Of a stretch of DNA of 25,221 nucleotides, positions 3,116 through 25,221 are shown one piece after another. Origin of the DNA: a bacterium (GTDB lineage Bacteria; UBP7; UBA6624; JBBIMK01); the NCBI GenBank assembly GCA_037444445.1, contig JBBIMK010000029.1:1-25221 (forward strand). Reading direction: 5' to 3'. Numbering within the stretch: the stretch's first letter is position 1; each line of letters starts with the position of its first letter. The position numbers and the translations under genes were made by a program. The notes beneath the pieces are model-generated. The model ran no database searches and was not told where the DNA came from. It saw only the letters and a program-made list of their open reading frames with translations.

Positions 3116-3161
3116 AGGTGAAGGTGGCGGTAAATACTGCACTCTGGTATCTGATAAGGCA

Positions 3162-3507: not shown

Positions 3508-4075
3508 ATGAAACGAAATGGTCACCTCAAGGGGATAACGGTTCTGGCAGTTACCCTTCTTGTTTCCTGTTCAGGAGGCACATTCAAAAGGGCTTTCGGA
3601 ACCCTGTTTTGTCTAACAATTGACGCTGTTCGTGGTCCCCCTGGACGGCTATTACTATTGCACGAGAACGAATCCCACTAATCCAAACGATAAGGTCACG
3701 GGGGTTGGAAAGGACAAGAACGGGAATAATAAGGTTGATGAATGGGGAGCGGACGGCAAACCCGGGACGGACGACGACGAGGTCTGGTGTGTTCAGGGAG
3801 AAGATAATTTAACGGGTCCTCCCATACCCTGTCCTCCCTGGATTAAGCCCAGAACTGTGGCTCAAGCGGATTGCGTAGAGAACGGGGGGAACTGGTCACA
3901 ATCGGACTCTGTCTATCAATGCACCTCATCGGGCTGGGACCGGGTGTTTTTCTGGGAGGACTTGAACGGGGATGATGGCATCCAGATAGATGAGTACTGG
4001 TGTGAATACAAAGATGCCAACGGCAACCCTGATGGAGTGAAAAAACCCTGTCTGGAAAATGCAGATTGGGAGTAA
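3508..4075 (+). pseudogene. Lipoprotein paralog 2, interrupted by a +1 frame change after the signal peptide
   Basis: The ATG at 3508 encodes MKRNGHLKGITVLAVTLLVSCSGG.., which stops at 3679-3681. The mature Cys-rich domain (DKNGNNKVDEW.., DLNGDDGIQIDEYWCEYKDANGNPDGVKKPC) is open in the next frame from 3617 to 4075. The two frames overlap across a C5 run at 3637-3641. Confidence 0.7.
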
Positions 4076-4107
4076 AAAACAGGACGCAATTCCGAATTAA
4101 GTTATAA

Positions 4108-4860
4108 TTGTATCAGAGAAAGAGGCGAGGATATATAAAAAGGGGGTTAATTTTTTTACTATTTCTTCCCGCTTTGTTCCTTTACTATCTGCTGTATGGC
4201 GTCGTTCAACTTCCCTATGTAAAGGTGGGGATAATTAATGTGTTGGCGGGGGATTTTGAGGCATTTGTTCCCGAAGCGGTTATTACCTTGCTCATTGCCG
4301 CGATGTTCCCTGATGGGCTTCGCCAGGTGGGGTGGAGAAGAGACCGCTGGGGAATCAACATTCTGCTGGGGGTGCTTCTATTCGTGAGTTTCTGGCTTGT
4401 CGGGTCCGGACTCAATTATCTGGGGATGTTTTTCTTTCCGGCCTGGGTTGCCCGGTTAGGCTCCGGTAGTCCTCTCTTTCACGGCATCCTGCAACATACC
4501 CTGCTGGGAAATCTCGCTGGCTTCATTCTTTTATTTCTCAATTCCGTAGCAGAAGACACCTTTGACATTTTCCTGTTTATTCGCCTGCGGCAGTGCTTTA
4601 AGGGGCGCTTGCTGGTTCCTTTTGTGGTCGTCATCCTGATAGACGCTGTGTCTCATTTTGAGTTTGGCTTCCCCACAAGTATCGCTGCAATGAGTCACAC
4701 TTTGACCGTTTCTACCTTTGTATTCCTCAAACTGGTCGTTTTCTACTACACCCGACACATTGGAGCGCTGGTCACCTGGCATACCCTGCATAATTTCTCA
4801 TTGGACATCCACAGATATATTGTAGCGGACCTGGAGTGGATTCTCAGAGGCGGAAGATAG
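4108..4860 (+). CDS. CPBP/Abi-like polytopic membrane protein (paralog 2, divergent motif 1)
   Basis: MFPDGLRQVGWRRDRW aligns with LFPGGLREIGWKKEGW of paralog 1. The motifs are AEDTFDIFLFIR, VSHFEFG and WHTLHNF. The start is uncertain: a TTG at 4108 with no clear SD. Confidence 0.6.
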   Translation: MYQRKRRGYIKRGLIFLLFLPALFLYYLLYGVVQLPYVKVGIINVLAGDFEAFVPEAVITLLIAAMFPDGLRQVGWRRDRWGINILLGVLLFVSFWLVGSGLNYLGMFFFPAWVARLGSGSPLFHGILQHTLLGNLAGFILLFLNSVAEDTFDIFLFIRLRQCFKGRLLVPFVVVILIDAVSHFEFGFPTSIAAMSHTLTVSTFVFLKLVVFYYTRHIGALVTWHTLHNFSLDIHRYIVADLEWILRGGR

Positions 4861-4870
4861 GGAAGCGAGA

Positions 4871-5170
4871 ATGAGAAGAATCTGGGAGAATAGACTGTTC
4901 TGGGAATGGTTGGGGGTTTTGTGCTTGTTGATGACATTTGCTCATAACTTGAGACTGCAATTGTTGTTACCGGTTCATATTCCTTGCGACATAAAAAAGT
5001 ATGGGAAAATATGTGAGGTTGCGACAAGCAAACTGCCTTTATTCGGCGGTCCCTGGTTCTGGAAGCCCTACGCAACGGTAGTGGGCATTCTCTTGTACAT
5101 CTGGCTCCTCGCCATGTGGTTTTATGGTCGGAAGGTGCTGATGAAGGAAAAGGGAGCGGGTGATGAATAA
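4871..5170 (+). CDS. small membrane protein (cassette 2)
   Basis: It has hydrophobic segments and the identical C-terminal 19 aa AMWFYGRKVLMKEKGAGDE. Confidence 0.55.
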   Translation: MRRIWENRLFWEWLGVLCLLMTFAHNLRLQLLLPVHIPCDIKKYGKICEVATSKLPLFGGPWFWKPYATVVGILLYIWLLAMWFYGRKVLMKEKGAGDE

Positions 5171-5305
5171 TCTATGGAGCAGGTAGGTCCGAATCGGCCG
5201 GGGGCTTTTCGCCCCCGTGGAAAACCCTCCAGAAGCGGGTGGGGGGCTGGAACATCGCCCCGTAAAGGGTGGTAAAATATCACCCGGGGGCGAAAGGAGG
5301 AAAAA
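5111..5305 (+). repeat. Leader/junction repeat, copy D
   Basis: It is near-identical to 3327-3436 and then diverges, while keeping GGGGC..GCCCC..CGGGGG pairings and the SD AAAGGAGG before the ATG at 5306. Stem: CGGGGGC 5199-5205 / GCCCCCG 5211-5217. Confidence 0.7.
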
Positions 5306-5865
5306 ATGAAACGAAATGGTATAATATCTACGATGGCAGTAATCATTCTTATTCTTTCCTGTAGTGATCCGGGAAGAGATAAGGATTATTACATAAGGAT
5401 TATTACAAAAACAAATGCGTCTATTATGTAATGGATATGTATGAGTGGTACGAGCCGTATCCGCCCTATGACTGGGCGTGTTCTAACGGCCAGAGTCGCT
5501 ATGTTGGTCAGGACAGAAACGGAGACGGTAAATATAAGGCGAAAGGGGATCCCGATGAGCTGGACGAGAGTAAGCGTCCCGAGGTGTGGTGCCAGAACAA
5601 ACAGTCTGACGGCACCTGGAAAAACGGCTCCTGTCCATTTGCAACTATGCAGACCGCAGAAACAGAATGCACTGTCAACGAGGGTTCCTGGTCCCGGTTA
5701 TCTCCCACGCAAGCCTGCTGTGCTTTCCCTGCTGGCGACCTCGCTGTTCTCATCCACGACGATAATGAAGATAGGCTTATCTACAACACCGAGTTCCATT
5801 GCGAGGGACTTAATGAGAACGGAGAACCTGACGGGCAGGAGATAACTTGCCCGGGGGAGGAGTAA
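5306..5865 (+). pseudogene. Lipoprotein paralog 3, split into a signal-peptide ORF and a mature-domain ORF
   Basis: 5306-5431 encodes MKRNGIISTMAVIILILSCSDPG..IM followed by a stop. The stop TAA overlaps the ATG at 5431 (TAATG). 5431-5865 encodes the Cys-rich domain (DRNGDGKYK, DDNEDRLIYNTEFHCEGLNENGEPDGQEITC). The mature frame is already open from 5383 and overlaps an A5 run at 5406-5410. Confidence 0.65.
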
Positions 5866-5877
5866 TTCGGGAGGTCT

Positions 5878-6561
5878 TTGGAACGATTCAGAAAGCCTGA
5901 ATTCTATCTTCTTCTCGCTTCTATCGGAAGCGTTTTTTTAGGGGAAGCGGTATTATTGGCCTCTATACTCGTAATACCGCGAGAGTTAAAAGACCTTTAC
6001 TTTGATTTCTACTATTATTTTAAGGAAGTTACCACCTGTCTTGGATGGATTGGCATCTTTGTAAGTTTTCTTCTCCTTTCAGGATGTGCGAGGGAATATT
6101 GGAAAAGAATACCTGTGGCAGTTCTTTTCAGGGCTACCTTGACGGCAGGAATCTTCAGTGGGCTTGCATCTGTCATTTTGCTCTCTGGGGAGTTTCTACT
6201 CACGAGTGGCAAGATTCCGGGTTTTGAACTCTCGGAGGCTCCACGAGGACTCATCACAGTAGCCCTGTTCGTTTTCCGTGAGGGCTCCAGCGTAATTCTT
6301 CAGGAAATTTTGATGCGTGGCGTGTTCCTGTTTTTTCTGATGAAGGGAGGGATTCCTTCTCCTCTTGCCAATTTTTTTCAGGCCATTCTTTTTGCTCTGG
6401 CTCACCCGAGAGCCCAACGTCAGTTTTTCTGGTTTCTCTTTTATTCACTTTTTGGATGGATTATGGGCTGGTCAGTTCTGCGTTATAAGTCCCTATATCC
6501 TGCCATAATGGTTCATACTCTGGGGAACTTTTTAAGTTATGCTCTGGGCTATGAGATATAA
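5878..6561 (+). CDS. CPBP family intramembrane metalloprotease (paralog 3, near-canonical motifs)
   Basis: The motifs are LQEILMRG (EExxxR-type), FALAHP (FxxxH) and MVHTLGNF (HxxxN). It is polytopic. It starts at TTG, preceded by GGGAGG at 5869-5874. Confidence 0.8.
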   Translation: MERFRKPEFYLLLASIGSVFLGEAVLLASILVIPRELKDLYFDFYYYFKEVTTCLGWIGIFVSFLLLSGCAREYWKRIPVAVLFRATLTAGIFSGLASVILLSGEFLLTSGKIPGFELSEAPRGLITVALFVFREGSSVILQEILMRGVFLFFLMKGGIPSPLANFFQAILFALAHPRAQRQFFWFLFYSLFGWIMGWSVLRYKSLYPAIMVHTLGNFLSYALGYEI

Positions 6562-8943: not shown

Positions 8944-9530
8944 ACCCCCGGGAAAAAGAGAATCTGTTGGAATCCTTTATTGCTTCCTGCATCTTTCATT
9001 TCATTCTCTTTCTGCTGTTGGCGGTTTTGATTCCCCCCCAGATTCTGAAGGCGGGAGAGGTGATGGGGTTCGTGCGTATCGGTGTGTGGGAGATAGAGAC
9101 GGGAATTCCTGGTGAGCCTTCCGCTACAAAGAAGAGGATGCCTCGGCCCCGGGAGGAGAAGGGGAAGCAGAAAACCCTGACTGCACAACAGGGGAAAACA
9201 TTGGCGGAGGCAGGTGCAGAAGGGGCGAAAGAGAAGGGATATAATCCGGCGGATTATCCGGGCGACCATGAGGCGGGGCTGTTATCCTCCGCCCCCGCCA
9301 TCTACCCCAAAACGGCTCAAAATCTGGGCTACCAGGGCACGGTCAGACTCCGCGTCCTCGTGGATGTGAACGGCCACGCAAAGGAAGTGAAATTGCTGAA
9401 ATCCTCCGGATATGAAATCCTGGATAAAGCGGCAGTTCGTTCGGTGAAAAACTGGCGTTTTGACCCGAAAGTGTTCAAAGGGAAAAAAGTGGAAGGGTGG
9501 ATAGAAGTAGAAGTGCCGTACACGCTGTGA
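8940..9530 (+). CDS. tonB: energy transducer TonB
   Basis: It has an N-terminal anchor, a charged linker, and a TonB C-terminal domain (YPKTAQNLGYQGTVRLRVLVDVNGHAKEVKLLKSSGYEILDKAAVRSVKNWRF). The start overlaps the exbD stop (ATGA). Confidence 0.8.
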   Translation: MNPREKENLLESFIASCIFHFILFLLLAVLIPPQILKAGEVMGFVRIGVWEIETGIPGEPSATKKRMPRPREEKGKQKTLTAQQGKTLAEAGAEGAKEKGYNPADYPGDHEAGLLSSAPAIYPKTAQNLGYQGTVRLRVLVDVNGHAKEVKLLKSSGYEILDKAAVRSVKNWRFDPKVFKGKKVEGWIEVEVPYTL

Positions 9531-11563
9531 ACTCCTCGCTGTCCTCCCGATGGTTTATCACTGGATTATTTCTATGGCTGGCTATGGGTATTTTTGGGGT
9601 TCTACAGGCCTCAAGCAGTGGAGAGGAAAAAGCCCTTCCGGAGGTTTCTTTTGAAGGCTTGATGACTGTGGAGAATGAATTTGTTCGCCTGCTGGTGAAT
9701 GTGGACACCCTGGATGCGGGGCGATACTCCCTGGAAACCACCGGAGGGGACCCGGCTCGCCCCGATGATGATAAGCAGATTCTCCTTTACGGACATCCTC
9801 CGATGCAGATGACCAGGCCCTGGACTTCTTATACAACGGTTCGGGTGGATGATGTGAATTATGCCTTCGGCGGGGAAACGAAGAGGCGAGCGGGCGCTTC
9901 TACACGCTTCGGCTTCCTTTCCCAGCCCCCCACCCGCCAGGAAGATGGTTCTATCCTCACTACCACCACCTTCGGCGATATACAGGTCACCCAGCGCCTC
10001 TCCCTGGCTCGTAGCCCCACCACTCGCATGCTGGATTCCCTTCAAATTGAATACCGGGTCGTAAACTCCGGAATCCAGCCGCATACCGTGGGCTTACGCA
10101 TCATGCTGGACACGATGCTGGGCACCAACGATGGAGCACCTCTACGAGCAGGGGCGGAATCCATTACCGCAGAAAAATGCTTCTCCGGTGATGCAGTGCC
10201 GGATTTCTTCCAGGCATTTGATTCCCTCTCTGAACCTCATGTAATCGCCCAGGGAACTCTGAGGGGTGAAGGGCTTACCCCCCCGTCTGCTTTGTATATC
10301 GCCAACTGGGGCACCCTCGCGGATGAGCCCTGGGAAATGGAATGCCGGGAGGGCGAAAGCCTGATTCGGAAGGGTGAGGAGGAAGTGGACAGTGCGGTAG
10401 CGCTATATTATAGCCCCCGAACCCTGTCTTCCGGCGAATCGTTCACCATTCGCACCCTGTATGGCCTGGGTGGCATTACCACCACGCCGGGGAAGCTTCT
10501 GCTGGGTATTACCGCACCGATGGAAGTGGCGTTCAAGCCCAGAGGCACCCCTCCCTTCACGGTGGTGGGCTACCTGGAGAATACGGGCGGGTTCCTCTCC
10601 CGCAATACCGCTTTACACCTTCGTCTCCCGCCAGGTTTATCTCTCCTCAGGGGAGAAACGGACATCCCTGTGGGGGATTTCTCCGGCGGGCAGGCCTTCC
10701 AATATGCCTGGCAGGTCGTCCCTGACGGGAAGGCTTTCGGTCTGCAAGACTTTCAGTTGAACGCTACATCAGAAAGTTATGAGGAAAATACAGCCAGAAG
10801 AGGGATTTTCATCCATCCACCGCCCACGCTGAATCTCGTCATCACGGCGCCAGAGCAACTCTCGGTGAAAGATACCACCCTGGAAAATAATCCCTTCGTG
10901 GTGAAAGCCACCCTCACCAACCCCGAAAGTATCCCAGTGAACCACCTCCTTTTGTCCATTTCTCTGCCCGAAGGACTTTCCCTTCCCCCTCCGGAGAAGC
11001 CACAGAAATTCCTGTCGGAATTAGAGCCAGGAGAACTGGCGGAATTCTCCTGGAAGGTGAAAGCCCTGGAAGGGTTAAGCGAGGTGGAATATTCGGTGAC
11101 AGCGGAGTCGGAAGATATTTTTCCAGCCACCGGCAGAAAAAGTATTTTTATCCCTTCCATCTATCCCCGCCTGGCTTTGTCTCCTGCCTCCATCACTTGC
11201 CCGGTGGGTGAATATTTTTACCTGGATTTGCTGATAGAAAAGGTGTCGTCTCTCTCCTCAGGGCAGTTCACCCTCACCTACGACCCTTATCAAATACGCC
11301 TCGTCATGGTCCGCCCCGGAACCCTTTCTTTGAGAAATGGCTTCAAAATGACCTCCCTGCATCGGGAACCCGGCAAACTCTCTTTCTCCTTTCTGATTTC
11401 CCCCGATACCCCGCTGGACACCTGGGAAACGCTCATCCGCCTGTACGCCAGAGCCCTGCAACCCGGCTCCACAAAATTCTCACTGAATTCCTGGGAGTTA
11501 AAGCAAGGAGATACGCTTCTGGACCTGCCCTTTCGCAATGCCAGTATTACGATTTTCAAATGA
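9527..11563 (+). CDS. large secreted/surface protein with Ig-like middle modules and a C-terminal cohesin-like module
   Basis: The signal-like N-terminus is RWFITGLFLWLAMGIFGVLQASS. The C-terminus, ..ITCPVGEYFYLDLLIEKVSSLSSGQFTLTYDPYQIRLV.., fits the pattern I associate with cohesin domains. The start is either GTG 9527 (GTGA overlap with the tonB stop) or GTG 9497. Confidence 0.7.
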   Translation: MNSSLSSRWFITGLFLWLAMGIFGVLQASSSGEEKALPEVSFEGLMTVENEFVRLLVNVDTLDAGRYSLETTGGDPARPDDDKQILLYGHPPMQMTRPWTSYTTVRVDDVNYAFGGETKRRAGASTRFGFLSQPPTRQEDGSILTTTTFGDIQVTQRLSLARSPTTRMLDSLQIEYRVVNSGIQPHTVGLRIMLDTMLGTNDGAPLRAGAESITAEKCFSGDAVPDFFQAFDSLSEPHVIAQGTLRGEGLTPPSALYIANWGTLADEPWEMECREGESLIRKGEEEVDSAVALYYSPRTLSSGESFTIRTLYGLGGITTTPGKLLLGITAPMEVAFKPRGTPPFTVVGYLENTGGFLSRNTALHLRLPPGLSLLRGETDIPVGDFSGGQAFQYAWQVVPDGKAFGLQDFQLNATSESYEENTARRGIFIHPPPTLNLVITAPEQLSVKDTTLENNPFVVKATLTNPESIPVNHLLLSISLPEGLSLPPPEKPQKFLSELEPGELAEFSWKVKALEGLSEVEYSVTAESEDIFPATGRKSIFIPSIYPRLALSPASITCPVGEYFYLDLLIEKVSSLSSGQFTLTYDPYQIRLVMVRPGTLSLRNGFKMTSLHREPGKLSFSFLISPDTPLDTWETLIRLYARALQPGSTKFSLNSWELKQGDTLLDLPFRNASITIFK

Positions 11564-15166: not shown

Positions 15167-16579
15167 GTGTCTGAAAGGATGAATAGAATGGAAAAAATGA
15201 AGGAGGCGGAGAGCAGGATGCGGCTGGAGAGATTGTGGGAATCCACTCTGCGATATTTGTTGAGGAAGAAGAGCGACCCCATTTTACGCTCTTTTTTGCA
15301 GGAAGCCCGGTTGGAGCAGAGGGAGAATCGCTTCATCCTTCAGGTGCCCACTCAACTCATCCGGGATACTTTGAAAAATCGCTATCCTGGAGTGATTGAA
15401 GAAGCCTTGACGCATGTGTTGAAGGATTCTGGCGGAGATGAAGAGATTGGATGGGAAAAAAAGGAGGTGGTGCTGGAACTGGAGATTCACCGGGGACCCA
15501 CCGGGATGGTTGAACAGCCCGGGCTTTTCCCGAAGTCAAAAGGCGACTCTCGCCTCTACCCCGCCCTGAATCCCAACTTCACCTTTGAAACCTTCGTGGT
15601 GGGGAAGAACAATCATATGACCCACGCCGCTGCATTAGCCGTCTCCCAGAACCCCGGCTGTGTGTATAACCCTCTGTTTATCTACGGTGGTGTGGGGCTG
15701 GGAAAAACCCACCTGTTACATTCCATCGGGCATTACATCCTGGAGAATGCTCCCGCACTCCTGATTCAATACACCCCCTCCGAGGAATTTACCCATGCTT
15801 TCATCACTTCTCTTCAGGAGGGGAAAATGAAGGAATTTCGGCGGACTTTTCGCTCCTGCGATGTTCTCCTGATGGACGATGTCCAGTTCTTAGCCCGGAA
15901 GGTGGAAACTCAGGAGGCGCTGTTTCATATTTTTAATGCCCTGCACGACTCTAACCGTCAGATTGTGCTGACCAGCGACCGCTCACCACGAGAACTGTCC
16001 GACATTGAAGGACGCCTCGTCAGCCGATTCACCTCCGGGCTGATTACCGACATCCAGCCTCCGGATTATGAAACCCGCCTCGCTATCTTGAAGCGGAAGG
16101 CGGATTCCCTTTCTGCTCCCCTCACCGATGAGGTGGCTGAATTCCTATCAGAGCAGGATGTGGCAAACATCCGGGAACTGGAATCCATCCTCCACCGGGT
16201 TGTCTCTTTTTCCACCCTGGAACTGCTCCCTCTCAATCTGGATACCGCCCGGGAAGCCTTGAAGGGATTCTTTGAGAAGAAAGAGAAGCCCTGCACCTTT
16301 GAGAAGATACTCCAATTTGTGGCGGAGGATTTCGGGCTGTCGGAAGGGGATTTGCTGTCAAAGAAGCGGACGCAGGAAATCGTCCTCGCTCGCCAGATTA
16401 TCATCTATATCGCCCGCATCCTTACCCATCTTTCCCTCTCCGACATCGGTAGAAGGCTGGGCGGAAAAGACCATACCACCGTCCTTCACGCATTCTCCAG
16501 AATTTCTGCACTGATGAAAGAAGACCCTGCCCTGGAACGCCGTATCCTCACCCTGATCGACGAAATCAAATCCCAATAG
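15167..16579 (+). CDS. dnaA: chromosomal replication initiator protein DnaA
   Basis: It has Walker A GGVGLGKTHLLH, Walker B LLMDDVQFL, sensor TSDR, and the C-terminal DNA-binding helix GGKDHTTVLHA. The real start is probably an internal ATG (15179-15218). The ATG at 15218 follows the SD GAAGGAGG at 15199-15206. Confidence 0.95.
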   Translation: MSERMNRMEKMKEAESRMRLERLWESTLRYLLRKKSDPILRSFLQEARLEQRENRFILQVPTQLIRDTLKNRYPGVIEEALTHVLKDSGGDEEIGWEKKEVVLELEIHRGPTGMVEQPGLFPKSKGDSRLYPALNPNFTFETFVVGKNNHMTHAAALAVSQNPGCVYNPLFIYGGVGLGKTHLLHSIGHYILENAPALLIQYTPSEEFTHAFITSLQEGKMKEFRRTFRSCDVLLMDDVQFLARKVETQEALFHIFNALHDSNRQIVLTSDRSPRELSDIEGRLVSRFTSGLITDIQPPDYETRLAILKRKADSLSAPLTDEVAEFLSEQDVANIRELESILHRVVSFSTLELLPLNLDTAREALKGFFEKKEKPCTFEKILQFVAEDFGLSEGDLLSKKRTQEIVLARQIIIYIARILTHLSLSDIGRRLGGKDHTTVLHAFSRISALMKEDPALERRILTLIDEIKSQ

Positions 16580-16701: not shown

Positions 16702-17358
16702 ATGAAATGGCATCGGCTGAAGGTAGCCCGGGGTATTCTGCTTTTCTCTCTCATCAGCGCCGGCGTTTCCCCACTACTGCCGGAAGATGTTCAATCTGCC
16801 CTGAATAAAAAAGTGAGCCTCCACTATCAGGAGGAGCCAGTGGGATACATTCTCAATGACATCAGCGCTCAAATTGGGGGAAAAGTTAGCCTCTCTACGG
16901 AGGTTTTTGAGGAAGTCGCTTCGGAAAAAATCACCCTCGTGTATTCGGATAAGGTGCCCGCCCATCAAACCTTCACTGCTCTGACGGCACTCTTCGGGCT
17001 GGAGTGGGAAGCCACTCAAGAAGCCTCCAGTGATAAAAAGAGTCTCATCCCGCTTATCCAGGTGTGGAAGAAGAAGGGAGTCCGTGTATCCTCCGAAGTC
17101 TTAAAGAAGGAATATGTGCTCAAGAGCGAGGGTCCCACGCCACTTCTGGATGTGGTGGTTCGGCTGGCGGACGATGTAGGCATCGGGGTGGCTTTCGCCC
17201 CTGGCGCCTACACCGCCTTCAAAGGCACCTATGTTACCCTCGCTATCCCCTCTACCCCGCTGGAGCAGTTACTCAAACTATTAGAGATTCGTGCGGGCAT
17301 CCGTGTAGCCCTTCTGCCCGTGGGCGACACCTACCTTCTTTATATTGACCGCCCGTAG
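16702..17358 (+). CDS. secreted hypothetical protein
   Basis: It has the signal-like N-terminus MKWHRLKVARGILLFSLISAGV and no motif I recognise. Its composition is like the core genome. Confidence 0.55.
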   Translation: MKWHRLKVARGILLFSLISAGVSPLLPEDVQSALNKKVSLHYQEEPVGYILNDISAQIGGKVSLSTEVFEEVASEKITLVYSDKVPAHQTFTALTALFGLEWEATQEASSDKKSLIPLIQVWKKKGVRVSSEVLKKEYVLKSEGPTPLLDVVVRLADDVGIGVAFAPGAYTAFKGTYVTLAIPSTPLEQLLKLLEIRAGIRVALLPVGDTYLLYIDRP

Positions 17359-17607
17359 CCCCCTGAATTATACGACGAAGGAGGTCAACGAACAGCAAAG
17401 TGGATTTTTTTTTCATTCTGTGGTATCAAGATAAAAGGTTAAGGATTGGATGAGCATAAAAATTACTACCCCCCAACCTCCTCCCACGCAAGGGAGGGAA
17501 ATCCAGAAATGATGATAGAATATAAACTTAGAATGACGGGTGAAGGGGAAGAGAAAGAAATTTTAGGAATGGGGGCCGGGTGAAAAGAAATGGCGAAACG
17601 GTGCCTA

Positions 17608-17679
17608 ACACAGCATAAAAGGTTCGCCCCTTACAGCACTTCCCCCCATTTTTGCTTCGCAAATACTTCTTTTATGCTG
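17608..17679. repeat. Island-flanking repeat R1 (left copy), with 11-bp terminal inverted repeats
   Basis: acacagcataaaaggttcgcCccttacagcacttccccccatttttgcttcgcaaatacttcttttatgcTg matches 25146-25216 with 2 mismatches. CAGCATAAAAG at 17611-17621 is the reverse complement of CTTTTATGCTG at 17669-17679. Confidence 0.8.
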
Positions 17680-17725
17680 GAAAACGTTATATGAAATGGC
17701 GATTGAGAGAAAATGGGGGTGAAAT

Positions 17726-18187
17726 ATGAGGCGAAGAGCCGATATTTATCTTGAAAGTTCCGTTGTAAGTATGTATTATGAAGAGGAGGTTCTTCCTCTG
17801 ATGGAGGTAACACGCGAATTTTGGCATACTGTCCTTCCCAAAATAAATCCATTTATTTCAGATATGGTAATTATCGAAATCAGGGCGACGAGAGACCTTA
17901 ACTTACGAAGTAAACTTCTTGAACTTGTTTCGGGATTTAGAATATTACCTCTGACAAGTGAGGCACGAGAATTGGCAGGGATATATCTAAAACATAGACG
18001 ATTACCCGAGCCAGACGCTATTCATATAGCTATTGCATCATTAGAGGGTATGGACCTGCTGGTAACATGGAACCTGCGACATTTAGTAAAACCTGGCACA
18101 CAGTCTATGGTCCGTCGAGTAAATATGGATTTAGGGTTGCCTATTCCACAGATGGTAACACCTGAAGATTTCTTTGAGGAGGTGTAA
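17726..18187 (+). CDS. PIN-domain (VapC-like) protein
   Basis: The pattern is PIN-like: IYLESSVV (first strand), IIEIRAT, PEPDAIHIAIAS, LLVTWNLRHL. The first and last acidic positions appear as E and N. The SD GGGGGTGA precedes the ATG. Confidence 0.55.
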   Translation: MRRRADIYLESSVVSMYYEEEVLPLMEVTREFWHTVLPKINPFISDMVIIEIRATRDLNLRSKLLELVSGFRILPLTSEARELAGIYLKHRRLPEPDAIHIAIASLEGMDLLVTWNLRHLVKPGTQSMVRRVNMDLGLPIPQMVTPEDFFEEV

Positions 18188-18189
18188 TT

Positions 18190-18390
18190 ATGCCAAAACG
18201 AATACCTACTGAAGAAGAAAAGAGAAAAGCTCTTGAAAGAGCAAAGCGCGAATTTCCTGGTAATAAGGTATTACAAGAACTTCATTACATTCGATATCTC
18301 CTTGAAATTGAGTGGAAAGATATGACAATTGAGGAAATTCAAGAAGAGATTCGTAAGGCAAAGCAAGAGCTGGGATTGACAGAAAAATGA
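18190..18390 (+). CDS. small charged protein, putative cognate partner (antitoxin-like) of the PIN protein
   Basis: It starts 2 nt after the PIN stop, behind the SD GAGGAGGTG. It is about 50% identical by eye to the paralog at 24904-25113 (EEEK..EFP..K.LQE.HY.RY.LE.EW..MT.EEI). Confidence 0.6.
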   Translation: MPKRIPTEEEKRKALERAKREFPGNKVLQELHYIRYLLEIEWKDMTIEEIQEEIRKAKQELGLTEK

Positions 18391-21300
18391 TACCCCCAGA
18401 AGTTCATCTTGCGCGCTTAAAAATTCATAAGGAAACAAAAGGAATGAGCGAGGAAGGAACTATGGCAAATAATAAAGTGGAAAAAATTAACACTGAAGAA
18501 ATAACAAAAGAAATTAAGCAGTGTGCTTCACAATCTGCAAACGAAGAAGAACTCAAAATTAAAGTTGAATATCTTCTACGGACACGTGTTCTTGATAGTT
18601 GGCAGATTCCTTGGGCTTCTTATGAACACAGAACCTTGGTATCCGGTGTGCGTAAAGATGCCCTGTATGGAACAGTAATAATTGAATATAAAGCTCCATG
18701 CAAACTTTCAGATAAAAATCAGTTTGAAAACTTTAAAGCAAAAGTAAAACAGTATATCGCAGAAGAAGCAAGAGACGAACGGTTTTATAATAGGTATTTT
18801 GGTGTCCTTCTTGATGGAGAAAAAATAGCATTTATCAGATTTAGAAAGGGAGAATGGGAAGAACCAGAAAAACCCCTTGATATAAATCGATACACAATTC
18901 TGAGGCTGTTAGAGGCTATAAGGGGTTTAACAAGAAAACCCGTTGATGCTGAGTTCTTATTACAAGACTTTGGTCCGAAGAGTACTATTAGTAAAGCCTG
19001 CATTATCTCTTTATATCAAGCATTAAGAAAATCTAAATCTCCACGCACCAAAATGCTTTTTGAAGACTGGCGCACTGTCTTTTCACAGATATGTGCATAT
19101 TCCACTGAGAAACTGAAAGGGCTTATTAAATACTATGAAATAGAAGAGGAAAGCCCTGATGTTGAAAAAATCTTGTTCTCCGTGCATACCTATTATACTC
19201 TGCTTATGAAACTTTTAACCTCGGAGATAGTTACTCTCTTTGCCGACAGTGTGATAGGCTCGTATCTGAAAAAGGTAGAGGAAGCATACTACCGAGGTTC
19301 TCATGAGATGCGTCAAGAATTAGGAGAGTTAGAAGAGGGAGGTCTATTCTATACCCTCGGCATAAAGAATTTCCTTGAGGCAGATTATTTCGCCTGGTAT
19401 CTGGATGATTGGAATGATGAAATAGCGCATTCAATCTCTGAAATTGTGAAAAAACTAATGGACTATGAACCGGCAACAGTTGAACTGAATCCTGAACGAG
19501 TTAAAGACCTTTTCAAAAGGCTTTACCAGAATCTCGTCCCAAGAGATGTGCGTCACAAATTGGGTGAATACTTTACTCCTGACTGGTTAGCAGATTTGCT
19601 TTTAGATGAGATAGAATATGATGGTGATCCGGAGAAGAGTGTTCTTGACCCTGCCTGTGGTTCAGGGACATTCCTTGTATTGGCAATTAAAAAAATTAAA
19701 GATTACGCAGAGAAACATTTTCTTGATAAAAGAGATATCCTTAAAAAGATAATTGAGAGAATAAAAGGCATTGATTTAAATCCACTTGCAGTTCTTGCTG
19801 CAAAAGCAAATTATCTAATTGCGTTATCTGATATGTTAAGATATAGACCAAAAGAAGGCATTGAGATTCCAGTTTATCTTGCTGATTCAATTTTTGTTGG
19901 AAGAAAAGAAGCAGGTCAGTCTGAACTTGAGGTTCAAAGGAGAATAGTATTTGATAAAAGCGCTCAAAAGGAATGGGAAGCATATATAACTACTAATGAA
20001 GGGCAATTCTGGATGCCTATGGAAGTAATTGATAAAGGAAGGCTTTCGAGTGTCCTTGATTTGATTAATGGATGTATAAGAAATAAGTATTCTGAAAATG
20101 AATTTGAAAAAAGGCTCAAAAATACTTTTCATTTTCGACCTTATGCGTATGGGGCACTTAAAAGACTTTATAAAAAGCTTATTGGTTTAGAGCGATATAA
20201 TAAAAACAAGATATGGACAAGATTGCTAAAAAATAGATTTGCACCTCTTTTTATTGGGAAATTTGACTTTGTAGTCGGAAATCCTCCCTGGATAAACTGG
20301 GAGAATTTACCAGAGTACCATAGGAACCAAACCAAACCTTTGTGGGATTATTACGGATTATTAGAAAAGACAAAGGGTAAGGGTTTAGGAAAAGTAAAAA
20401 GAGACCTGGCAATGCTTTTTGTTGCAAGATGTTTTGATAGATATGTAAAAGAGAATGGGATATTGAGTTTTCTTGTGCCCTGGACATTATTCAAAACACA
20501 GGCAGGCGCCGGATTTAGAAAGCTTCTATCAAAGGGGTTTACACACAGGTGGGGCAAAACTAAAGAAGTTCCAATTGAGACGATCAAAGTTCATGACCTT
20601 GTTCAACTTTATCCATTTGAAGGCGCCGTAAATAGAACAGCGCTGATTGCTATTAAAAAAGGGGAGACCAAGTTTCCAATTCCTTGTCAGATGTGGTCAA
20701 ATCCAAGAAAGGAAAATATTCCGATGGAAGAGGAACTTGAAAATGTAAGGAAGAGAACAAAACAGAATGAGATGATACTTACCCCAATTGTAGAAAAAGA
20801 CACAATGGCTCCATGGATGATAATATCAGAGAAAGCATATAAGGCGGTTAAAAAGGTTATAGGTGAATCGGAATATGAAGCATATGAAGGCGTTAATACC
20901 GCTTTGAATGGTGTTTACTGGCTTGAGATTTTAAGAAAGCACCCAGATGGTCTGCTCGTTAAGAATACGCAACTTGCCGGATATAAGAAAAAGGTAAAGG
21001 AGGTTACAGAGATTTTAGAGCCTGATTTGATTTATCCGCTTATCAGGGGAGAGGATGTAAAGAAGTGGCATGGAGAACCAAGCAGGTATATTTTAGTTCC
21101 TCATAACCCATCAACTGGCAAAGCAATTGATGAATCCGCAATTAAAATTAACTACCCAAAAACATACAAATTTCTTTTCGGCCTCAAAGAAGAACTCGCA
21201 AATCGTTCAATTCATAAATTGTGGGGTAAAAATAGTCCATTCTATGCAGTTTATGATATTGGAAATTATACCTTTGCACCTTACAAAGTTATGTGGAAAA

Positions 21301-22178
21301 GGATAGCGGGCGGTATTACTGGTAAAGCTGTTAGTTTTGCATCATGCGTAATAACAACTGTAAAAGATAAATTCTTTGAAGTAGAAAAACCCGTTATTCC
21401 AAATGATTCCTTAATTTTAATTCCTTTGAACAGCAAAGATGAGGCATTCTATATTTGTAGTGTTTTGAATTCATCACCAGTGCTATTTGCCATCGCATCT
21501 TATACTTATGAATTAAGAATGGAAACCCATATTACCAAGTATATTAATATCCCAAGATTTAAGTCACAAAAACCTTTATGTTCAGAAATTTCGCAATTAT
21601 CCATGCAAGCCCATGAACTTGCAAAAGAAGGTAAAACCGAAGAAATAAAAGAAATTGAGGAACAAATTGACCAGAAGGTTGCAGAACTTTATGGTATAAC
21701 CGATGAGGAACTCGCGGAGATTAAGAAGTGTTTACAGTTATTGAAAGAGGGCGAAGTTGAGACTGAAGAGGAAACGGAAGAAGAAGTTATTCCAGAAGCA
21801 CCAAAGGGGATAGGAATTACAGTCAATCCCCTTCTGATTTATGAGGATATAGCAGAACAAATCACTCTGGAAATTCAAAATAATTTTGACGACACGGTTG
21901 AAGAAATTAGTGTTGAAATTCTATTAACCGGCAATAAAATTGCAAAACAATCTCTTAATAGATTAAAATTTAAGAGTAAGTCCCTATTGAATTTTATCTT
22001 ACCTCCATTAAAGGGCGGTGAATACAAATTGAAAATGAATTTAACTTACAAGTTAAATGAAGAAAAACAAGTAATGCAGGTAGAGAAAAATCTGTTTGTG
22101 CAAAGGGAAAAAGCCAAAGAATCTCCAGGAAGCGGTTGGGATGAATCTTTTGAAAGATTTTTAGAGGAGGAAAAATGA
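18387..22178 (+). CDS. Type IIG/IIL-like fusion: N-terminal PD-ExK nuclease motif, gamma-class N6-adenine DNA methyltransferase, specificity region and a C-terminal extension
   Basis: The nuclease motif is D-x8-E-x-K, KDALYGTVIIEYK (GAT 18657, GAATATAAA 18684-18692). It also has LGEYFTPDWLADLL, motif I VLDPACGSGTFLV (about 19641-19680), motif IV FVVGNPPW (NPPW 20280-20291), and AELYGITDEELAEI near the end of the methyltransferase/specificity part. The start may be 18387 (ATGA overlap with the upstream gene), 18444 or 18462. Confidence 0.88.
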   Translation: MIPPEVHLARLKIHKETKGMSEEGTMANNKVEKINTEEITKEIKQCASQSANEEELKIKVEYLLRTRVLDSWQIPWASYEHRTLVSGVRKDALYGTVIIEYKAPCKLSDKNQFENFKAKVKQYIAEEARDERFYNRYFGVLLDGEKIAFIRFRKGEWEEPEKPLDINRYTILRLLEAIRGLTRKPVDAEFLLQDFGPKSTISKACIISLYQALRKSKSPRTKMLFEDWRTVFSQICAYSTEKLKGLIKYYEIEEESPDVEKILFSVHTYYTLLMKLLTSEIVTLFADSVIGSYLKKVEEAYYRGSHEMRQELGELEEGGLFYTLGIKNFLEADYFAWYLDDWNDEIAHSISEIVKKLMDYEPATVELNPERVKDLFKRLYQNLVPRDVRHKLGEYFTPDWLADLLLDEIEYDGDPEKSVLDPACGSGTFLVLAIKKIKDYAEKHFLDKRDILKKIIERIKGIDLNPLAVLAAKANYLIALSDMLRYRPKEGIEIPVYLADSIFVGRKEAGQSELEVQRRIVFDKSAQKEWEAYITTNEGQFWMPMEVIDKGRLSSVLDLINGCIRNKYSENEFEKRLKNTFHFRPYAYGALKRLYKKLIGLERYNKNKIWTRLLKNRFAPLFIGKFDFVVGNPPWINWENLPEYHRNQTKPLWDYYGLLEKTKGKGLGKVKRDLAMLFVARCFDRYVKENGILSFLVPWTLFKTQAGAGFRKLLSKGFTHRWGKTKEVPIETIKVHDLVQLYPFEGAVNRTALIAIKKGETKFPIPCQMWSNPRKENIPMEEELENVRKRTKQNEMILTPIVEKDTMAPWMIISEKAYKAVKKVIGESEYEAYEGVNTALNGVYWLEILRKHPDGLLVKNTQLAGYKKKVKEVTEILEPDLIYPLIRGEDVKKWHGEPSRYILVPHNPSTGKAIDESAIKINYPKTYKFLFGLKEELANRSIHKLWGKNSPFYAVYDIGNYTFAPYKVMWKRIAGGITGKAVSFASCVITTVKDKFFEVEKPVIPNDSLILIPLNSKDEAFYICSVLNSSPVLFAIASYTYELRMETHITKYINIPRFKSQKPLCSEISQLSMQAHELAKEGKTEEIKEIEEQIDQKVAELYGITDEELAEIKKCLQLLKEGEVETEEETEEEVIPEAPKGIGITVNPLLIYEDIAEQITLEIQNNFDDTVEEISVEILLTGNKIAKQSLNRLKFKSKSLLNFILPPLKGGEYKLKMNLTYKLNEEKQVMQVEKNLFVQREKAKESPGSGWDESFERFLEEEK
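18425..18501 (+). repeat. 77-bp perfect direct repeat R2 (left copy), carrying the SD and first codons of the methyltransferase gene
   Basis: tcataaggaaacaaaaggaatgagcgaggaaggaactatggcaaataataaagtggaaaaaattaacactgaagaaa is identical to 24764-24840. Confidence 0.95.
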
Positions 22179-22975
22179 CACAAGCACTTGCAATACCGTC
22201 ATTCCCTACCCTTATTATATTGCCTAAATATAGGGGGGATGCAGAACCCCTTGTTGTTGAAAGAAAAATAAGCAAGCAAATAGAAAACATAATCAATTCC
22301 TTGATTAAATCACGCAAACCCCTTGCAAAAAATATTCACAATTTGCTGCCACAGATATTTGATATCAGGTTCAAATTTATAAAATGGGCGATTGAAAAAA
22401 ATATTGATTTACAACTTATTTCAGAATCGGTTTTGAGTGAATTAGATAAGGTGGCCAGTCAATTAAAACAACCTGATGAAGTTGTTCTCTTTGAAAATGC
22501 AAAGTTCGCATTGAAAACCTTCGCTAAGGTTCTTAACTCTATTACCGCAGAGATTCCATCGTGGACAGAACAAATAAGAGAAGACCTTGAAAAGGGAATT
22601 ACTATTTCTTATGAGCAATTGAAATTTGCAATAGAGTTAGAGCCACTTCCTGAACCTGCAAAGTCAATTATCATAAGACTCATAGATGTCTCATTGTCCC
22701 TTGAATTTGCTTTAATCCTTTCCGCCTTATATATATTCAAAGAACTCAGACTTTCAAAGGCAAGAATAATTGAACTTTCAAAACTTCTAAGAGACTGGAC
22801 ACAAGAATATGGGGCAATGGCTATGAAATTACAACTTTGGAAATCTAAAATGAAGAAAGTCCCCCAGGAGTCTCTCCAATTAACGGCCGAGGAAATTGAA
22901 GAAGAACAAAAATTGGCAGATGCTGGTATATCTTATTATCTGAACCAGATTATTCAGGAAGAGGAAAATGAATAG
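22175..22975 (+). CDS. hypothetical helical protein with an acidic C-terminal tail
   Basis: It overlaps the stop of the upstream gene (ATGA) and overlaps the downstream MazF-like start by 8 nt. I recognise no motif. The C-terminus is ..AEEIEEEQKLADAGISYYLNQIIQEEENE. Confidence 0.7.
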   Translation: MTQALAIPSFPTLIILPKYRGDAEPLVVERKISKQIENIINSLIKSRKPLAKNIHNLLPQIFDIRFKFIKWAIEKNIDLQLISESVLSELDKVASQLKQPDEVVLFENAKFALKTFAKVLNSITAEIPSWTEQIREDLEKGITISYEQLKFAIELEPLPEPAKSIIIRLIDVSLSLEFALILSALYIFKELRLSKARIIELSKLLRDWTQEYGAMAMKLQLWKSKMKKVPQESLQLTAEEIEEEQKLADAGISYYLNQIIQEEENE

Positions 22976-23306
22976 TTATCAACCTGGCGATATAGTTGTA
23001 GTAGACTTGGGCGAAACCATCGGACATGAACAAGAAGGTAGAAGACCTGTGGTGGTCGTTTCTCAAATATTAATTGGAAATCTAATTGTAATTATTCCAT
23101 TAACAAGAAAAGAGAAGTCCTGGTGGACAGTAGTGCGGATTAAAGAAGGAGAGGGTGGAGTAAAGATGGATTCATTTGCGTTGTGTCACCAAATAAGGTC
23201 TATCTCCTTGAAACGAGTTATTGAAAAATGGAGTCGTATAGAATCGGATACTTTAGCCCGCATAAAAACAGTCCTTGCTAACATCTTTGAATGGAGCCCA
23301 CAATGA
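22968..23306 (+). CDS. mazF: MazF/PemK-family endoribonuclease toxin
   Basis: It contains PGDIVVVDLGETIGHEQEGRRPVVVVSQ, VIIPLT and DSFALCHQIRSISLKRV. These fit the PemK/MazF pattern (GDI..VD..P..G.EQ.G.RP..V.S ... PIT ... Q.R..S..R). Confidence 0.88.
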   Translation: MNSYQPGDIVVVDLGETIGHEQEGRRPVVVVSQILIGNLIVIIPLTRKEKSWWTVVRIKEGEGGVKMDSFALCHQIRSISLKRVIEKWSRIESDTLARIKTVLANIFEWSPQ

Positions 23307-24727
23307 ATCAAGATGAATTAAATGCAAAACTAAAATATTACTTTAGCGATTGCGTTGTTAATAAGAAACTCTCTGAAAGACAGGAAATAATTAGGATTCC
23401 AAGGTTTGTTTCTGAGAACCTTTTAACAAAAATTTCTGTTTATGAAAATGACAAAGAACTCTTTTCTGAAAAACTTGCCAAAATGATAGAGTTTATCACT
23501 AATCACTTTCCTGAACCAAGGGATAAAGATAAAATCCTGAATAAACTACTCGAAAAACAAGAATATGAAATTATAGACGAATTCCGGGTTGAAGTGGATA
23601 TAAAAAATGGCATCAAAAAGGCTCACATCCCTTCCCTGAACATCAGAAACGCAATGATCCTTGATTCCATAATTAATGAAAATGAAAATCTGCTTTCTAC
23701 TGGTATCTGGGGATTTGCAAAACTGAGATATACTGACCCAGTATGCGATGAAAATGAAAACCCTCTTACCGTTCCTGTTCTGATAGAAAGTTTTAAACCC
23801 TTTCAGGTTTCCAATATTGATATGAAAGATTTTATTACAAAGAGAGAGCATTTTACCCTTGATGAATGGATTGATGTAATCATTAATACCATAGGTTTGA
23901 ATCCAAGCATCTTTGATAAGGAGCAAAAGTTAATATTAATTTCCCGCTTCATTCCGCTCGTTGAAAACAATGTAAGTATGCTTGAATTTGGCCCTCGTGC
24001 AACAGGAAAAACATATTTTTACAGGAATATATCCTTTTATACCAGGATAATTTCAGGGGGTCATTTAAGCCCTGCGGTTCTGTTTTATAATATTGCCACA
24101 AAAACTGTAGGAGAAATAGGAATAAAAGATTGTATGGTATTTGATGAAATAGCCAAAATCAGATTCATAAATGCTGACGAAATGATGGGAAAACTGAAGG
24201 ATTACATGGAGAGTTCTCATTTTGAAAGAGGTCCTAAAAAAACAACCTCTACATGCTCAATGGTATTTATGGGGAATGTGGATGTTAAAGGATTTATTCC
24301 TGTGGAAGATTTTACTTATATATTACCAGAATTTATGAGAGACAGCGCTTTTGTGGATAGGATTAACGGTATAATACTAGGATGGAAGTTGCCAAAAATT
24401 AAGAAACCTGAAATCCATCTTTCTCAAAATTATGGATTTTCTTCTGACTATTTTTCTGAAATCCTTCACGAATTAAGAAAAATAGACTTCCAAACAGAAT
24501 TAAAAAGGATTGTGGATTTGGAAAATGTAACCATAAGGGACTATAAGAGCGTTTTTAAATTGTTAAGTGGCATGATGAAAATCTTATTTCCTCACAAAAA
24601 GTGGGAAGTGCCTGAGTTTGAGAGAATAATAACCTTTTGCATAGGATATCGCGAGATGGTCTGTGAATGGCTGCATAAAATGGCACCTGGGGAGTTTGAA
24701 AGGAAGAGAATTGTGTTTAAAGTATGA
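23303..24727 (+). CDS. BrxL-like AAA+ ATPase (short form, no room for a Lon-like C-terminal domain)
   Basis: It has Walker A FGPRATGKTYFY (23990-24013) and Walker B CMVFDEIA (GATGAA 24143-24148). The N-terminus LNAKLKYYFSDCVVNKKL and the core ..GPR.TGK..Y......ISGG......LF.N......G.....D...FDE.. resemble BrxL as I remember it. The ATG at 23303 overlaps the MazF stop (ATGA); an alternative ATG is at 23291. Confidence 0.7.
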   Translation: MNQDELNAKLKYYFSDCVVNKKLSERQEIIRIPRFVSENLLTKISVYENDKELFSEKLAKMIEFITNHFPEPRDKDKILNKLLEKQEYEIIDEFRVEVDIKNGIKKAHIPSLNIRNAMILDSIINENENLLSTGIWGFAKLRYTDPVCDENENPLTVPVLIESFKPFQVSNIDMKDFITKREHFTLDEWIDVIINTIGLNPSIFDKEQKLILISRFIPLVENNVSMLEFGPRATGKTYFYRNISFYTRIISGGHLSPAVLFYNIATKTVGEIGIKDCMVFDEIAKIRFINADEMMGKLKDYMESSHFERGPKKTTSTCSMVFMGNVDVKGFIPVEDFTYILPEFMRDSAFVDRINGIILGWKLPKIKKPEIHLSQNYGFSSDYFSEILHELRKIDFQTELKRIVDLENVTIRDYKSVFKLLSGMMKILFPHKKWEVPEFERIITFCIGYREMVCEWLHKMAPGEFERKRIVFKV

Positions 24728-24763
24728 GTATATTGCATATCGCCACCAAGCAAAACAGTCGTC

Positions 24764-24840
24764 TCATAAGGAAACAAAAGGAATGAGCGAGGAAGGAACT
24801 ATGGCAAATAATAAAGTGGAAAAAATTAACACTGAAGAAA
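24764..24840 (+). repeat. 77-bp perfect direct repeat R2 (right copy)
   Basis: It is identical to 18425-18501. It begins 37 nt after the BrxL-like stop. Confidence 0.95.
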
Positions 24841-24902
24841 AGTTACCAATTCCCACAATTTTGACACCTGAAAAATTTTTTGAATTCAAGGAGGAGGTGT
24901 AA
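24841..24902 (+). pseudogene. 3' remnant of a second PIN gene, fused in frame to the R2-encoded start (chimeric micro-ORF 24783-24902)
   Basis: KLPIPTILTPEKFFEFKEEV-stop parallels the C-terminus of the intact PIN protein, GLPIPQMVTPEDFFEEV-stop. The same SD/stop/start geometry follows (ggaggaggtgtaatATG). Confidence 0.7.
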
Positions 24903-24903
24903 T

Positions 24904-25113
24904 ATGCCCAGAAGAGAAGTTTCAGAGGAGGAAAAAGAAAAAATACGCAAACGTGTTGAGATAGAATTTCCTGAGGATAAGTGCTTGCAGGAAATTCACT
25001 ACTATAGATATATTTTAGAGTTAGAATGGGAAACTATGACGCCAGAGGAAATATTGATGGATATAAAAGAAGGCGCTCGCCGGGTGAAAGAGGGAATGAA
25101 AGAAGAACATTGA
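24904..25113 (+). CDS. paralog of the small PIN-partner protein
   Basis: MPRREVSEEEKEKIRKRVEIEFPEDKCLQEIHYYRYILELEWETMTPEEI.. aligns with the product of 18190-18390. The SD is AAGGAGGAGGTG. Confidence 0.7.
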   Translation: MPRREVSEEEKEKIRKRVEIEFPEDKCLQEIHYYRYILELEWETMTPEEILMDIKEGARRVKEGMKEEH

Positions 25114-25145
25114 AAAACTATGCGATGATACCGCAAGTTCATATC

Positions 25146-25216
25146 ACACAGCATAAAAGGTTCGCTCCTTACAGCACTTCCCCCCATTTTTGCTTCGCAA
25201 ATACTTCTTTTATGCC
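25146..25216. repeat. Island-flanking repeat R1 (right copy)
   Basis: It matches 17608-17679 with 2 mismatches. The terminal inverted repeat is 10/11 here. The window ends 5 nt later. Confidence 0.8.
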
Positions 25217-25221
25217 GGGAA

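Follow-up and report, generated by a model that had tools for sequence, protein, structure and literature searches.

What kind of enzyme is encoded in one operon with a BrxL-like gene on contig JBBIMK010000029.1 of a UBP7 bacterium (assembly GCA_037444445.1) is the question raised by this locus. The stretch analyzed, called the window here, comprises 25,221 nucleotides (positions 1 to 25,221 of the contig). On its + strand, an open reading frame (ORF) of 1263 codons plus a stop was confirmed by the ORF listing at 18387-22178. A first-pass annotation had read it as a PglX-sized methyltransferase with an MmeI-type nuclease motif, and as a possible intermediate between the Type IIL restriction-modification (RM) enzymes and PglX of the bacteriophage exclusion (BREX) systems. 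Our results place the enzyme itself in a characterized Type IIG family, of which it is an ordinary member. We consider it likely that this RM protein is a TspDTI-type Type IIG enzyme whose C-terminal tail is inherited together with a short BrxL and recruits the BrxL ring. What is new at this locus is a conserved three-way link of a Type IIG family, a dedicated tail domain, and short BrxL.

In a BLASTP comparison, the RM protein was homologous to TsoI (1116 aa) from end to end, with 35% identity over 1141 columns (residues 36-1129 against 13-1114, 660 bits); the TsoI sequence was taken from Additional file 3 of PMC3384240, and residues of the RM protein are numbered on the 1263-aa ORF. The PADLOC REase_MTase_IIG model PDLC03630 scored 1074 bits (residues 38-1119 against model positions 10-1098 of 1100), and a second whole-length PADLOC model, PDLC03580 (1112 positions), scored 697 bits. 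TspDTI, Tth111II/TthHB27I, and TsoI are proteins of 1106-1121 aa that cleave at 11/9 nt, and the Thermus-family enzymes have the domain order R-Mh-Mc-S, ending with a target-recognition domain (TRD), recognize asymmetric sites of 5-6 bp, and are modulated by S-adenosylmethionine (SAM) or sinefungin (PMC3384240). The order R-Mh-Mc-S is common to these enzymes and the RM protein, whose full-length AlphaFold2 model had a mean predicted local distance difference test (pLDDT) score of 85.4. The N-terminal nuclease domain (residues 26-185, 18462-18941, + strand like all parts of the gene) is assigned from the invariance of D91 and E100, the alignment to TspDTI and TsoI, and its alpha/beta model. It is followed by a helical linker domain (residues 186-373, 18942-19505) with an all-helical model, which aligns with the TsoI counterpart of the "helical linker" described at about residues 160-360 of TspDTI (PMC3384240). 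The gamma-class N6-adenine methyltransferase domain (residues 374-800, 19506-20786) was matched by the Pfam models Eco57I (53.5 bits), N6_Mtase (42.1 bits), and MmeI_Mtase (28.7 bits). In the TRD and C-terminal helices (residues 801-1129, 20787-21773), the alignment reaches residue 1114 of the 1116 of TsoI, and the best Foldseek matches of the model were M.BseCI and CamA, which combine a methyltransferase with a TRD. More than 3000 homologues of the protein were found, and loci of the family were confirmed in species-representative genomes (GTDB) at least 570 times. Among the best 80 of these at least 570 loci, archaea supplied most of the nearer relatives and bacteria most of the more distant ones; mostly archaeal nearest relatives, among the matches listed, also set the RM protein apart from the Thermus enzymes.

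The sequence KDALYGTVIIEYK begins at residue 90 and carries D91, E100, and K102, and further downstream are EYFTPD at residue 394 (19566-19583), DPACGSGTF at 421 (DPACGSG, 19647-19667), NPPW at 632 (20280-20291), and ELYGITDEELAEI at 1100. The D-x8-E-x-K near the N-terminus, the FTP motif, motif I, and NPPW had all been noted in the first-pass annotation and were confirmed. It had also described a specificity region ending in ELYGITDEELAEI; the motif is present, but the protein runs 151 residues further. The motifs DPACGSG and NPPW belong to the TspDTI subfamily, whereas DPAxGTG and NPPY are found in the TspGWI subfamily (PMC3384240), and the RM protein has both of the former in a form identical to that of TspDTI and Tth111II/TthHB27I. 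Motif I of TsoI is given as PPACGSG in a table of the same paper and reads DPACGSG in its deposited sequence (PMC3384240). The catalytic residues proposed for TspDTI are D66, E75, and E77, described as an "atypical D-EXE", and D-EXK has been reported in other homologues (PMC3384240). Counted from M26, the probable start codon discussed below, D91, E100, and K102 are residues 66, 75, and 77 and fall on the same positions, where TsoI has the same D/E/E residues as TspDTI. The RM protein thus differs from the Thermus enzymes in having D-EXK instead of D-EXE. Because the alignment to TsoI runs from end to end and the catalytic residues and motifs match, the RM protein is, as judged from its sequence, a single-chain Type IIG (IIS/IIC) enzyme of the TspDTI/TsoI/Tth111II subfamily. 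The nuclease motif is present and conserved, but the name MmeI-type given to it was imprecise, as both its residues and its place in the protein match the TspDTI/TsoI subfamily.

The bare D-x8-E-x-K pattern is only weakly informative, because the RM protein is rich in E and K and chance matches are expected. The pattern occurs twice in the protein (at residues 91 and 1252), and shuffled versions contained 0.64 matches on average, with one or more in 48% of the shuffles. The motif D91/E100/K102 carries weight because it is conserved and homologous, not because of the pattern. In 120 close homologues, D91 was kept in 113 of 114 sequences, E100 in all 116, and K102 in 112 of 116; in 40 diverse relatives (23-57% identity), G87, D91, E100, and P104 were invariant, E80 was kept in at least 90%, and position 102 was K or E. 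At the level of sequence comparison, this is the conservation pattern of a constrained metal-binding site, homologous to the site of enzymes that cut DNA, and the candidate catalytic residues, as indicated by conservation and alignment, are E80 (18624-18626), D91 (18657-18659), and E100 with K102 (18684-18692). That the N-terminal domain adopts a PD-(D/E)xK fold is likely rather than demonstrated.

The RM gene probably occupies 18462-22178, with the ORF open from the ATG at 18387. M26 (ATG 18462) is preceded by GAGGAAGGA and aligns with the annotated M1 of a 72% identical homologue at locus L085, which has a TAGGAGG site. On the basis of this ribosome-binding site and the L085 alignment, translation probably starts at M26, giving a protein of 1238 aa and leaving the first 25 codons untranslated. 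The nuclease motif, previously placed about 90 residues from the N-terminus, is at that distance when counted from the first ATG but only about 65 residues away if M26 is the start. At the other end, TsoI stops opposite residue 1129, and residues 1130-1263 (21774-22175) form an extra tail absent from TsoI. The Thermus enzymes, at about 1100-1120 aa, end with the TRD, whereas the RM protein goes on for these 134 residues. The homologues fell into two length classes, one of about 1090-1110 aa and the other of about 1215-1250 aa. In the model, the tail consists of a disordered acidic linker and a predicted seven-strand beta-sandwich (about residues 1142-1238, pLDDT 81-91), with weak Pfam matches to CARDB and WxLIP_HBD, and we propose it as a docking domain for short BrxL. 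A phmmer search with the tail against 1.84 billion representatives returned 14 matches, all of them C-terminal ends of proteins of 82-606 aa that look like fragments of the RM family, and none in a PglX-sized protein. In the loci that were fetched, a hidden Markov model (HMM) of the tail matched only the C-terminal ends of RM-family ORFs, nearly all directly upstream of a short BrxL; the remaining ORFs were cut by a contig end. At locus L094, a 203-aa ORF (9385-9996) contains the RM C-terminal helices and the tail, with no full enzyme in the 10 kb available upstream of its short BrxL; this ORF may represent a tail protein in its own right or a remnant.

The BrxL of the window (478 aa, 23291-24727, + strand) is of the short kind, with BrxL_N and an MCM-like AAA+ ATPase (Walker A GPRATGKT, Walker B VFDE). 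It scored 364 bits with Pfam BrxL_ATPase, 105 bits with BrxL_N, and 491 bits with TIGR02688 (cut-off 329), and it aligned to positions 3-465 of the 680-position BrxL model, the Lon/RadA-like C-terminal domain being absent. Its ATPase motifs were invariant in 14 orthologues. BrxL has been stated to be limited to BREX types 1 and 4 (PMC10164562), and the type-4 protein lacks the C-terminal domain (PMC12839542). The window protein resembles type-4 BrxL in combining N-terminal DNA-binding domains with an MCM-family AAA+ ATPase and no C-terminal extension, but it follows a Type IIG enzyme and is not part of a phosphorothioation/PglZ/BrxC locus, and it scored 373 bits on the N-terminal part of the long BrxL models against 289 and 234 bits on the short ones.

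The link between tail and short BrxL was examined in both directions. The forward sample comprised loci from the GTDB species-representative genomes and two metagenome loci, each with at least 2.5 kb of downstream sequence, and a tail was defined as at least 90 aa. A short BrxL was found downstream of 8 of the 9 tailed enzymes and of 2 of the 40 tail-less ones (Fisher p = 9e-7, phylogeny ignored), and one of these two tail-less cases was a frameshifted gene with the tail in a separate ORF. No BrxL was nearby in 48 of the 49 tail-less GTDB loci. For the reciprocal comparison, the best 80 metagenomic loci by short-BrxL alignment were taken, 44 of which had at least 4 kb upstream. The RM family lay upstream on the same strand in 35 of these 44, only a tail-bearing 3' end in 2, and other neighbors in 7. 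The order was fixed and the spacing often only 14-80 bp in relatives about 37-60% identical to the window enzyme. At L085, BrxL was 89% identical to that of the window and the enzyme about 71-72%, which makes BrxL the more conserved partner. The pairing with a BrxL-like gene, which the first-pass annotation had pointed out, is therefore real, conserved, and tied to the extra length of the enzyme by co-occurrence in both directions; no such operon partner has been reported for the Thermus enzymes.

On this basis, a mechanism can be proposed. The enzyme's recognition site would be short and asymmetric, with one adenine in it methylated as the self mark, and unmodified DNA would be cut at a fixed distance downstream, which is 11/9 nt in the characterized relatives. 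Because the cassette has no second methyltransferase gene, modification of one strand only is likely, which would agree with the way the MmeI family protects its hosts. The tail would then dock the MCM-like AAA+ ring of BrxL onto the enzyme, as suggested by the co-occurrence and by the BREX literature, where the C-terminal extension of PglX has been proposed as a partner-binding surface (PMC11341690) and BrxL was necessary for restriction alone in the cases tested (PMC12707154). By analogy with BREX, BrxL may be an ATP-driven accessory factor for restriction rather than methylation, and it might encircle or hold foreign DNA, or bring sites together. The class to which the enzyme belongs is known to cleave incompletely and to be stimulated by two sites. 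Given that the BrxL pairing is genuine and conserved and goes with the extra length, it is plausible that enzyme and BrxL functionally parallel PglX and BrxL of BREX. We put forward more tentatively that the tailed enzyme and short BrxL make up a minimal restriction system of two proteins that stands on its own and would bridge classical RM and BREX, and that they share a modular "methyltransferase tail plus BrxL" interface with PglX and BrxL of BREX. In such a system, the enzyme would provide recognition, self-methylation, and cleavage, and the beta-sandwich would recruit a BrxL ring required for efficient restriction.

Several observations weigh against a cleaving Type IIG enzyme that recruits BrxL through its tail. 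The model of the N-terminal domain had a pLDDT of 85.5, but only about 60 in the catalytic hairpin and the D91 loop; VIIEYK lies on a strand that is followed by a long helix. No Foldseek match at E <= 0.001 was obtained for the isolated domain against the PDB and viral libraries, and a Pfam scan of this domain of the window protein gave no match. The Foldseek matches obtained were weakly enriched in PD-(D/E)xK nucleases, none of them significant, and included BpuSI (Type IIG, probability 0.77), NucC (template modeling (TM) score 0.45), RecE, Hjc, an HsdR fragment, cap-snatching endonucleases, Cas4-like nucleases, and a phage adenine methyltransferase of 868 aa (Type IIG-like, probability 0.93). 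Pfam scans of the N-terminal domains of 40 relatives gave single weak matches, to MmeI_N in one (5.5e-4) and to PDDEXK_9 in another (0.019), and HHsearch gave the TspDTI authors only E = 0.087 to HSDR_N (PMC3384240). On the side of the pairing, L001/L097 has a tail-less enzyme with an adjacent short BrxL, and the tailed enzyme of L024 is without BrxL, its 96-residue tail failing the tail HMM. The other neighbors of short BrxL were DUF499 proteins, a Type III-like Mod/Res and UvrD-nuclease set, and an SMC-like gene with three unknown small genes. Finally, in a neighbor-joining tree the tailed, BrxL-linked enzymes were scattered among tail-less ones within the archaea-rich half of the family, with TsoI in the tail-less bacterial half. 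This scatter implies frequent gains and losses of the tail and BrxL, which appear to behave as a module gained and lost together.

The loci with other partners of short BrxL were L114, L119, L135, L136, L144, L148, and L150 (DUF499; UvrD-nuclease with an N6_N4 methyltransferase and ResIII; SMC-like ATPase). DUF499 proteins form the core of the systems recently given the name "BREX-related". Since short BrxL is also found beside DUF499, Mod/Res, and SMC-like modules, its partner is not exclusive, and several RM-like systems appear to use it as a modular accessory.

The missing independent support for the N-terminal fold would fit another reading, in which the enzyme is nuclease-dead and serves, like PglX, as a methyltransferase and specificity subunit, with short BrxL as the effector of a BREX-like restriction without cleavage. 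The conserved pairing with BrxL also agrees with this, and no cleavage by PglX is known in BREX, where it acts with BrxL (PMC11341690). However, E80, D91, and E100 are invariant or nearly so, BrxL-linked members included, which is unexpected for a dead site; the relatives TspDTI, TsoI, and Tth111II cleave at 11/9; and the tail-less relatives are solitary, as the 48 of 49 GTDB loci without BrxL indicate, and hence must restrict alone. We therefore regard a dead nuclease as quite improbable. It is also conceivable, though doubtful, that the RM enzyme and short BrxL are independent defense genes that share one island, the tail serving, for example, in oligomerization or DNA binding. Defense genes cluster generally, unrelated cargo separates the two genes, short BrxL has other partners too, and one tail-less enzyme stands beside BrxL. 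Such independence is difficult to reconcile with the same strand, fixed order, and often 14-80 bp gap across relatives of about 37-60% identity, with a co-occurrence of tail and BrxL that is nearly perfect both ways, and with the persistence of the pair while the cargo between its genes changes.

Some features favor the idea that the protein stands, in evolution or in function, between the MmeI-type Type IIL enzymes and PglX, which has no nuclease. Like the MmeI family (MmeI, DrdV), the RM protein joins in a single chain and in the same order a nuclease, a helical linker, a gamma-class N6-methyladenine (m6A) methyltransferase, and a TRD, with a D-xn-E-x-K near the N-terminus. Like PglX (BrxX) of type 1 BREX, it is a large gamma-class m6A methyltransferase with a TRD, has a C-terminal extension past the MmeI-like core, and shares its operon with a BrxL gene. 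The best PDB match of the family profile was PglX, although weak (E = 7e-5, from motif I to motif IV only), and Foldseek ranked the full-length model first with M.BseCI and CamA, next with BrxX/PglX (TM 0.41), and then with the MmeI relative DrdV (TM 0.33), but full-length TM-scores of 0.3-0.4 do not decide the family because multi-domain scores depend on domain orientation. The remaining evidence points away from this idea. Similarity to the MmeI family is confined to motif I: the MmeI_Mtase match was marginal (28.7 bits against a cut-off of 27, positions 22-88 of 259), MmeI_N, MmeI_hel, MmeI_TRD, and MmeI_C had no Pfam match in the RM protein, and PDB sequence searches with the single protein and the family profile (E <= 10) gave no match to MmeI, DrdV, or BpuSI, and only motif I-level matches to Type I HsdM and PglX. 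For TspDTI, too, the similarity to MmeI has been described as very limited (PMC3384240). The NCBIfam MTaseX models scored 56.7 bits for BREX-2 (cut-off 400), 29.6 for BREX-1 (500), 32.2 for BREX-5 (900), and 23.3 for BREX-6 (900), and these PglX models covered only the motif X/I region, about 60-300 residues. In contrast to PglX, which has none, the RM protein has a conserved nuclease motif, and its tail is a 134-residue predicted beta-sandwich that matched no PglX-sized protein. The "PglX size" has a simple origin, because the usual length of the family is about 1090-1110 aa and the excess is made up of the in-frame 25-codon upstream extension and this tail. BREX also differs in its gene content, as PglZ, BrxC, BrxA, and BrxB are not found here and BrxL is without the Lon-like domain; no PglZ or BrxC was found in the window, which ends 494 bp past BrxL, and its largest other ORF (688 aa) has NPCBM_assoc and cohesin domains. 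With the end-to-end relationship to TsoI, the whole-length match to the Type IIG model, and essentially no affinity to PglX, the protein lies inside an ordinary Type IIG clade, and an intermediate is highly improbable.

The assignment to the TspDTI-type family thus corrects the idea of an MmeI/PglX hybrid. The three-way link of enzyme, tail, and short BrxL spans dozens of mostly archaeal hot-spring and sediment contigs in addition to the bacterial island of the window. Our literature searches found no description of a Type IIG-BrxL pair, with the original BREX paper (Goldfarb 2015) outside their scope and an earlier mention possible. A two-gene system would be a much less complex setting than BREX with its six genes for studying the function of BrxL, and the partner here is, by homology, an enzyme that cleaves and whose methylation site can be read.

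The four genes of the cassette (RM, a 266-aa protein, MazF, and BrxL) have overlapping start and stop codons. The 266-aa protein (22175-22975, + strand), whose start overlaps the RM stop, is helical with an acidic C-terminus, and in the operon of the closest relative, L085, a 51% identical copy stands in the same place before PemK (both genes together at 5082-6198). None of Pfam, NCBIfam, and PADLOC yielded a family for it, and in the cargo of the GTDB loci, L086, and L087 it had no relative, the L085 copy being the only one found. The next gene (22968-23306, + strand) codes for a MazF/PemK-like endoribonuclease toxin of 112 aa (Pfam PemK_toxin, 78.4 bits), which is 62% identical to the L085 copy. 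The 266-aa protein is possibly an antitoxin or partner of this MazF-like gene, although it would be unusually long for a MazF antitoxin. A scan for promoters and terminators over 17.3-25.2 kb found no excess over shuffled sequences.

Between the RM and BrxL genes, L085 carries genes for a 450-aa protein, a 264-aa protein, and PemK, and L003 carries genes for proteins of 145 and 264 aa. L086 and L098 share a similar set of four cargo genes, the last of which is AIPR in L086. Other cargo included GmrSD-HNH Type IV enzymes, an AAA_15/AAA_21 ATPase, and an N6_N4 methyltransferase with a BrxC/D-like ATPase and a PIN protein. Cargo inside the pair was seen at L086, L096, L098, L100, L101, and L007/L111. 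The RM-BrxL pair brackets exchangeable defense cargo, which in the window is the 266-aa protein and MazF. This resembles BREX loci, in which Type IV (GmrSD) and further defense genes are embedded (PMC12839542). As a carrier of such cargo (MazF, AIPR, GmrSD, ABC-type ATPases, PIN), the pair offers a route to new defense genes.

A perfect 77-bp direct repeat flanks the cassette. Its left copy (18425-18501) holds the ribosome-binding site and the first 13 RM codons from M26, and its right copy (24764-24840) lies 36 bp past the stop codon of BrxL, where a second PIN gene has its 3' end fused to it in frame, the fusion reading MSEEGTMANNKVEKINTEE joined to KLPIPTILTPEKFFEFKEEV and a stop codon. The copies are spaced 6339 bp apart around the four genes. 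A length of 77 nt is a common assembler k-mer (subsequence) length, and the repeat may be an assembly loop through a 6339-bp circular form rather than a genomic feature. Since the repeat length equals an assembler k-mer, the boundaries of the cassette are uncertain. Paralogous modules at 17726-18390 and 24783-25113 each consist of a PIN protein and a protein of 66-69 aa (EEEK..FP..K.LQE.HY.RY.LE.EW), the second PIN gene being truncated to its last 20 codons. These PIN and small-ORF modules that bracket the cassette are probably toxin-antitoxin pairs. Two copies of a 76-nt repeat with 96% identity and an 11-bp terminal stem lie before the first PIN module (17608-17683) and at the window end (25146-25221), the latter probably marking an assembly break. 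The possibility that this repeat is an attC-like site was dropped, as it folded no better than shuffled sequences (z = -1.3).

The cassette lies in a low-GC island. Near 17.5 kb the guanine plus cytosine (GC) content drops from about 52% to about 35%, and it is 35-40% within the island against 50-58% outside. Synteny with the related genome L168 (DnaA 87% identical) ends at 17357, where L168 has a glycosyltransferase and a HicB-like gene. The region of about 17358-25221 is a strain-specific island directly downstream of dnaA and a gene for a 223-aa protein, with its right end past the window. The host DnaA (15167-16579) had relatives of 87-95% identity on metagenomic contigs only, and the nearest named ones, at 43-51%, were from bacterium JZ-2024 1, Firmicutes, Dictyoglomus, and Carboxydothermus; the host is a bacterium that is probably thermophilic. 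Exact look-up of the window BrxL and DnaA returned no other contig. Because the host is bacterial and the closest relatives of the RM enzyme are mostly archaeal, the distribution suggests inter-domain transfer.

In the first part of the window (1-5400), a 27-nt repeat containing a ribosome-binding site was found in four copies at a spacing of about 1.6-1.8 kb, together with a 167-nt repeat at 3295-3461 and 5079-5245 (90% identity). These repeats suggest that small paralogous genes, each with a conserved leader, are arrayed here in tandem.

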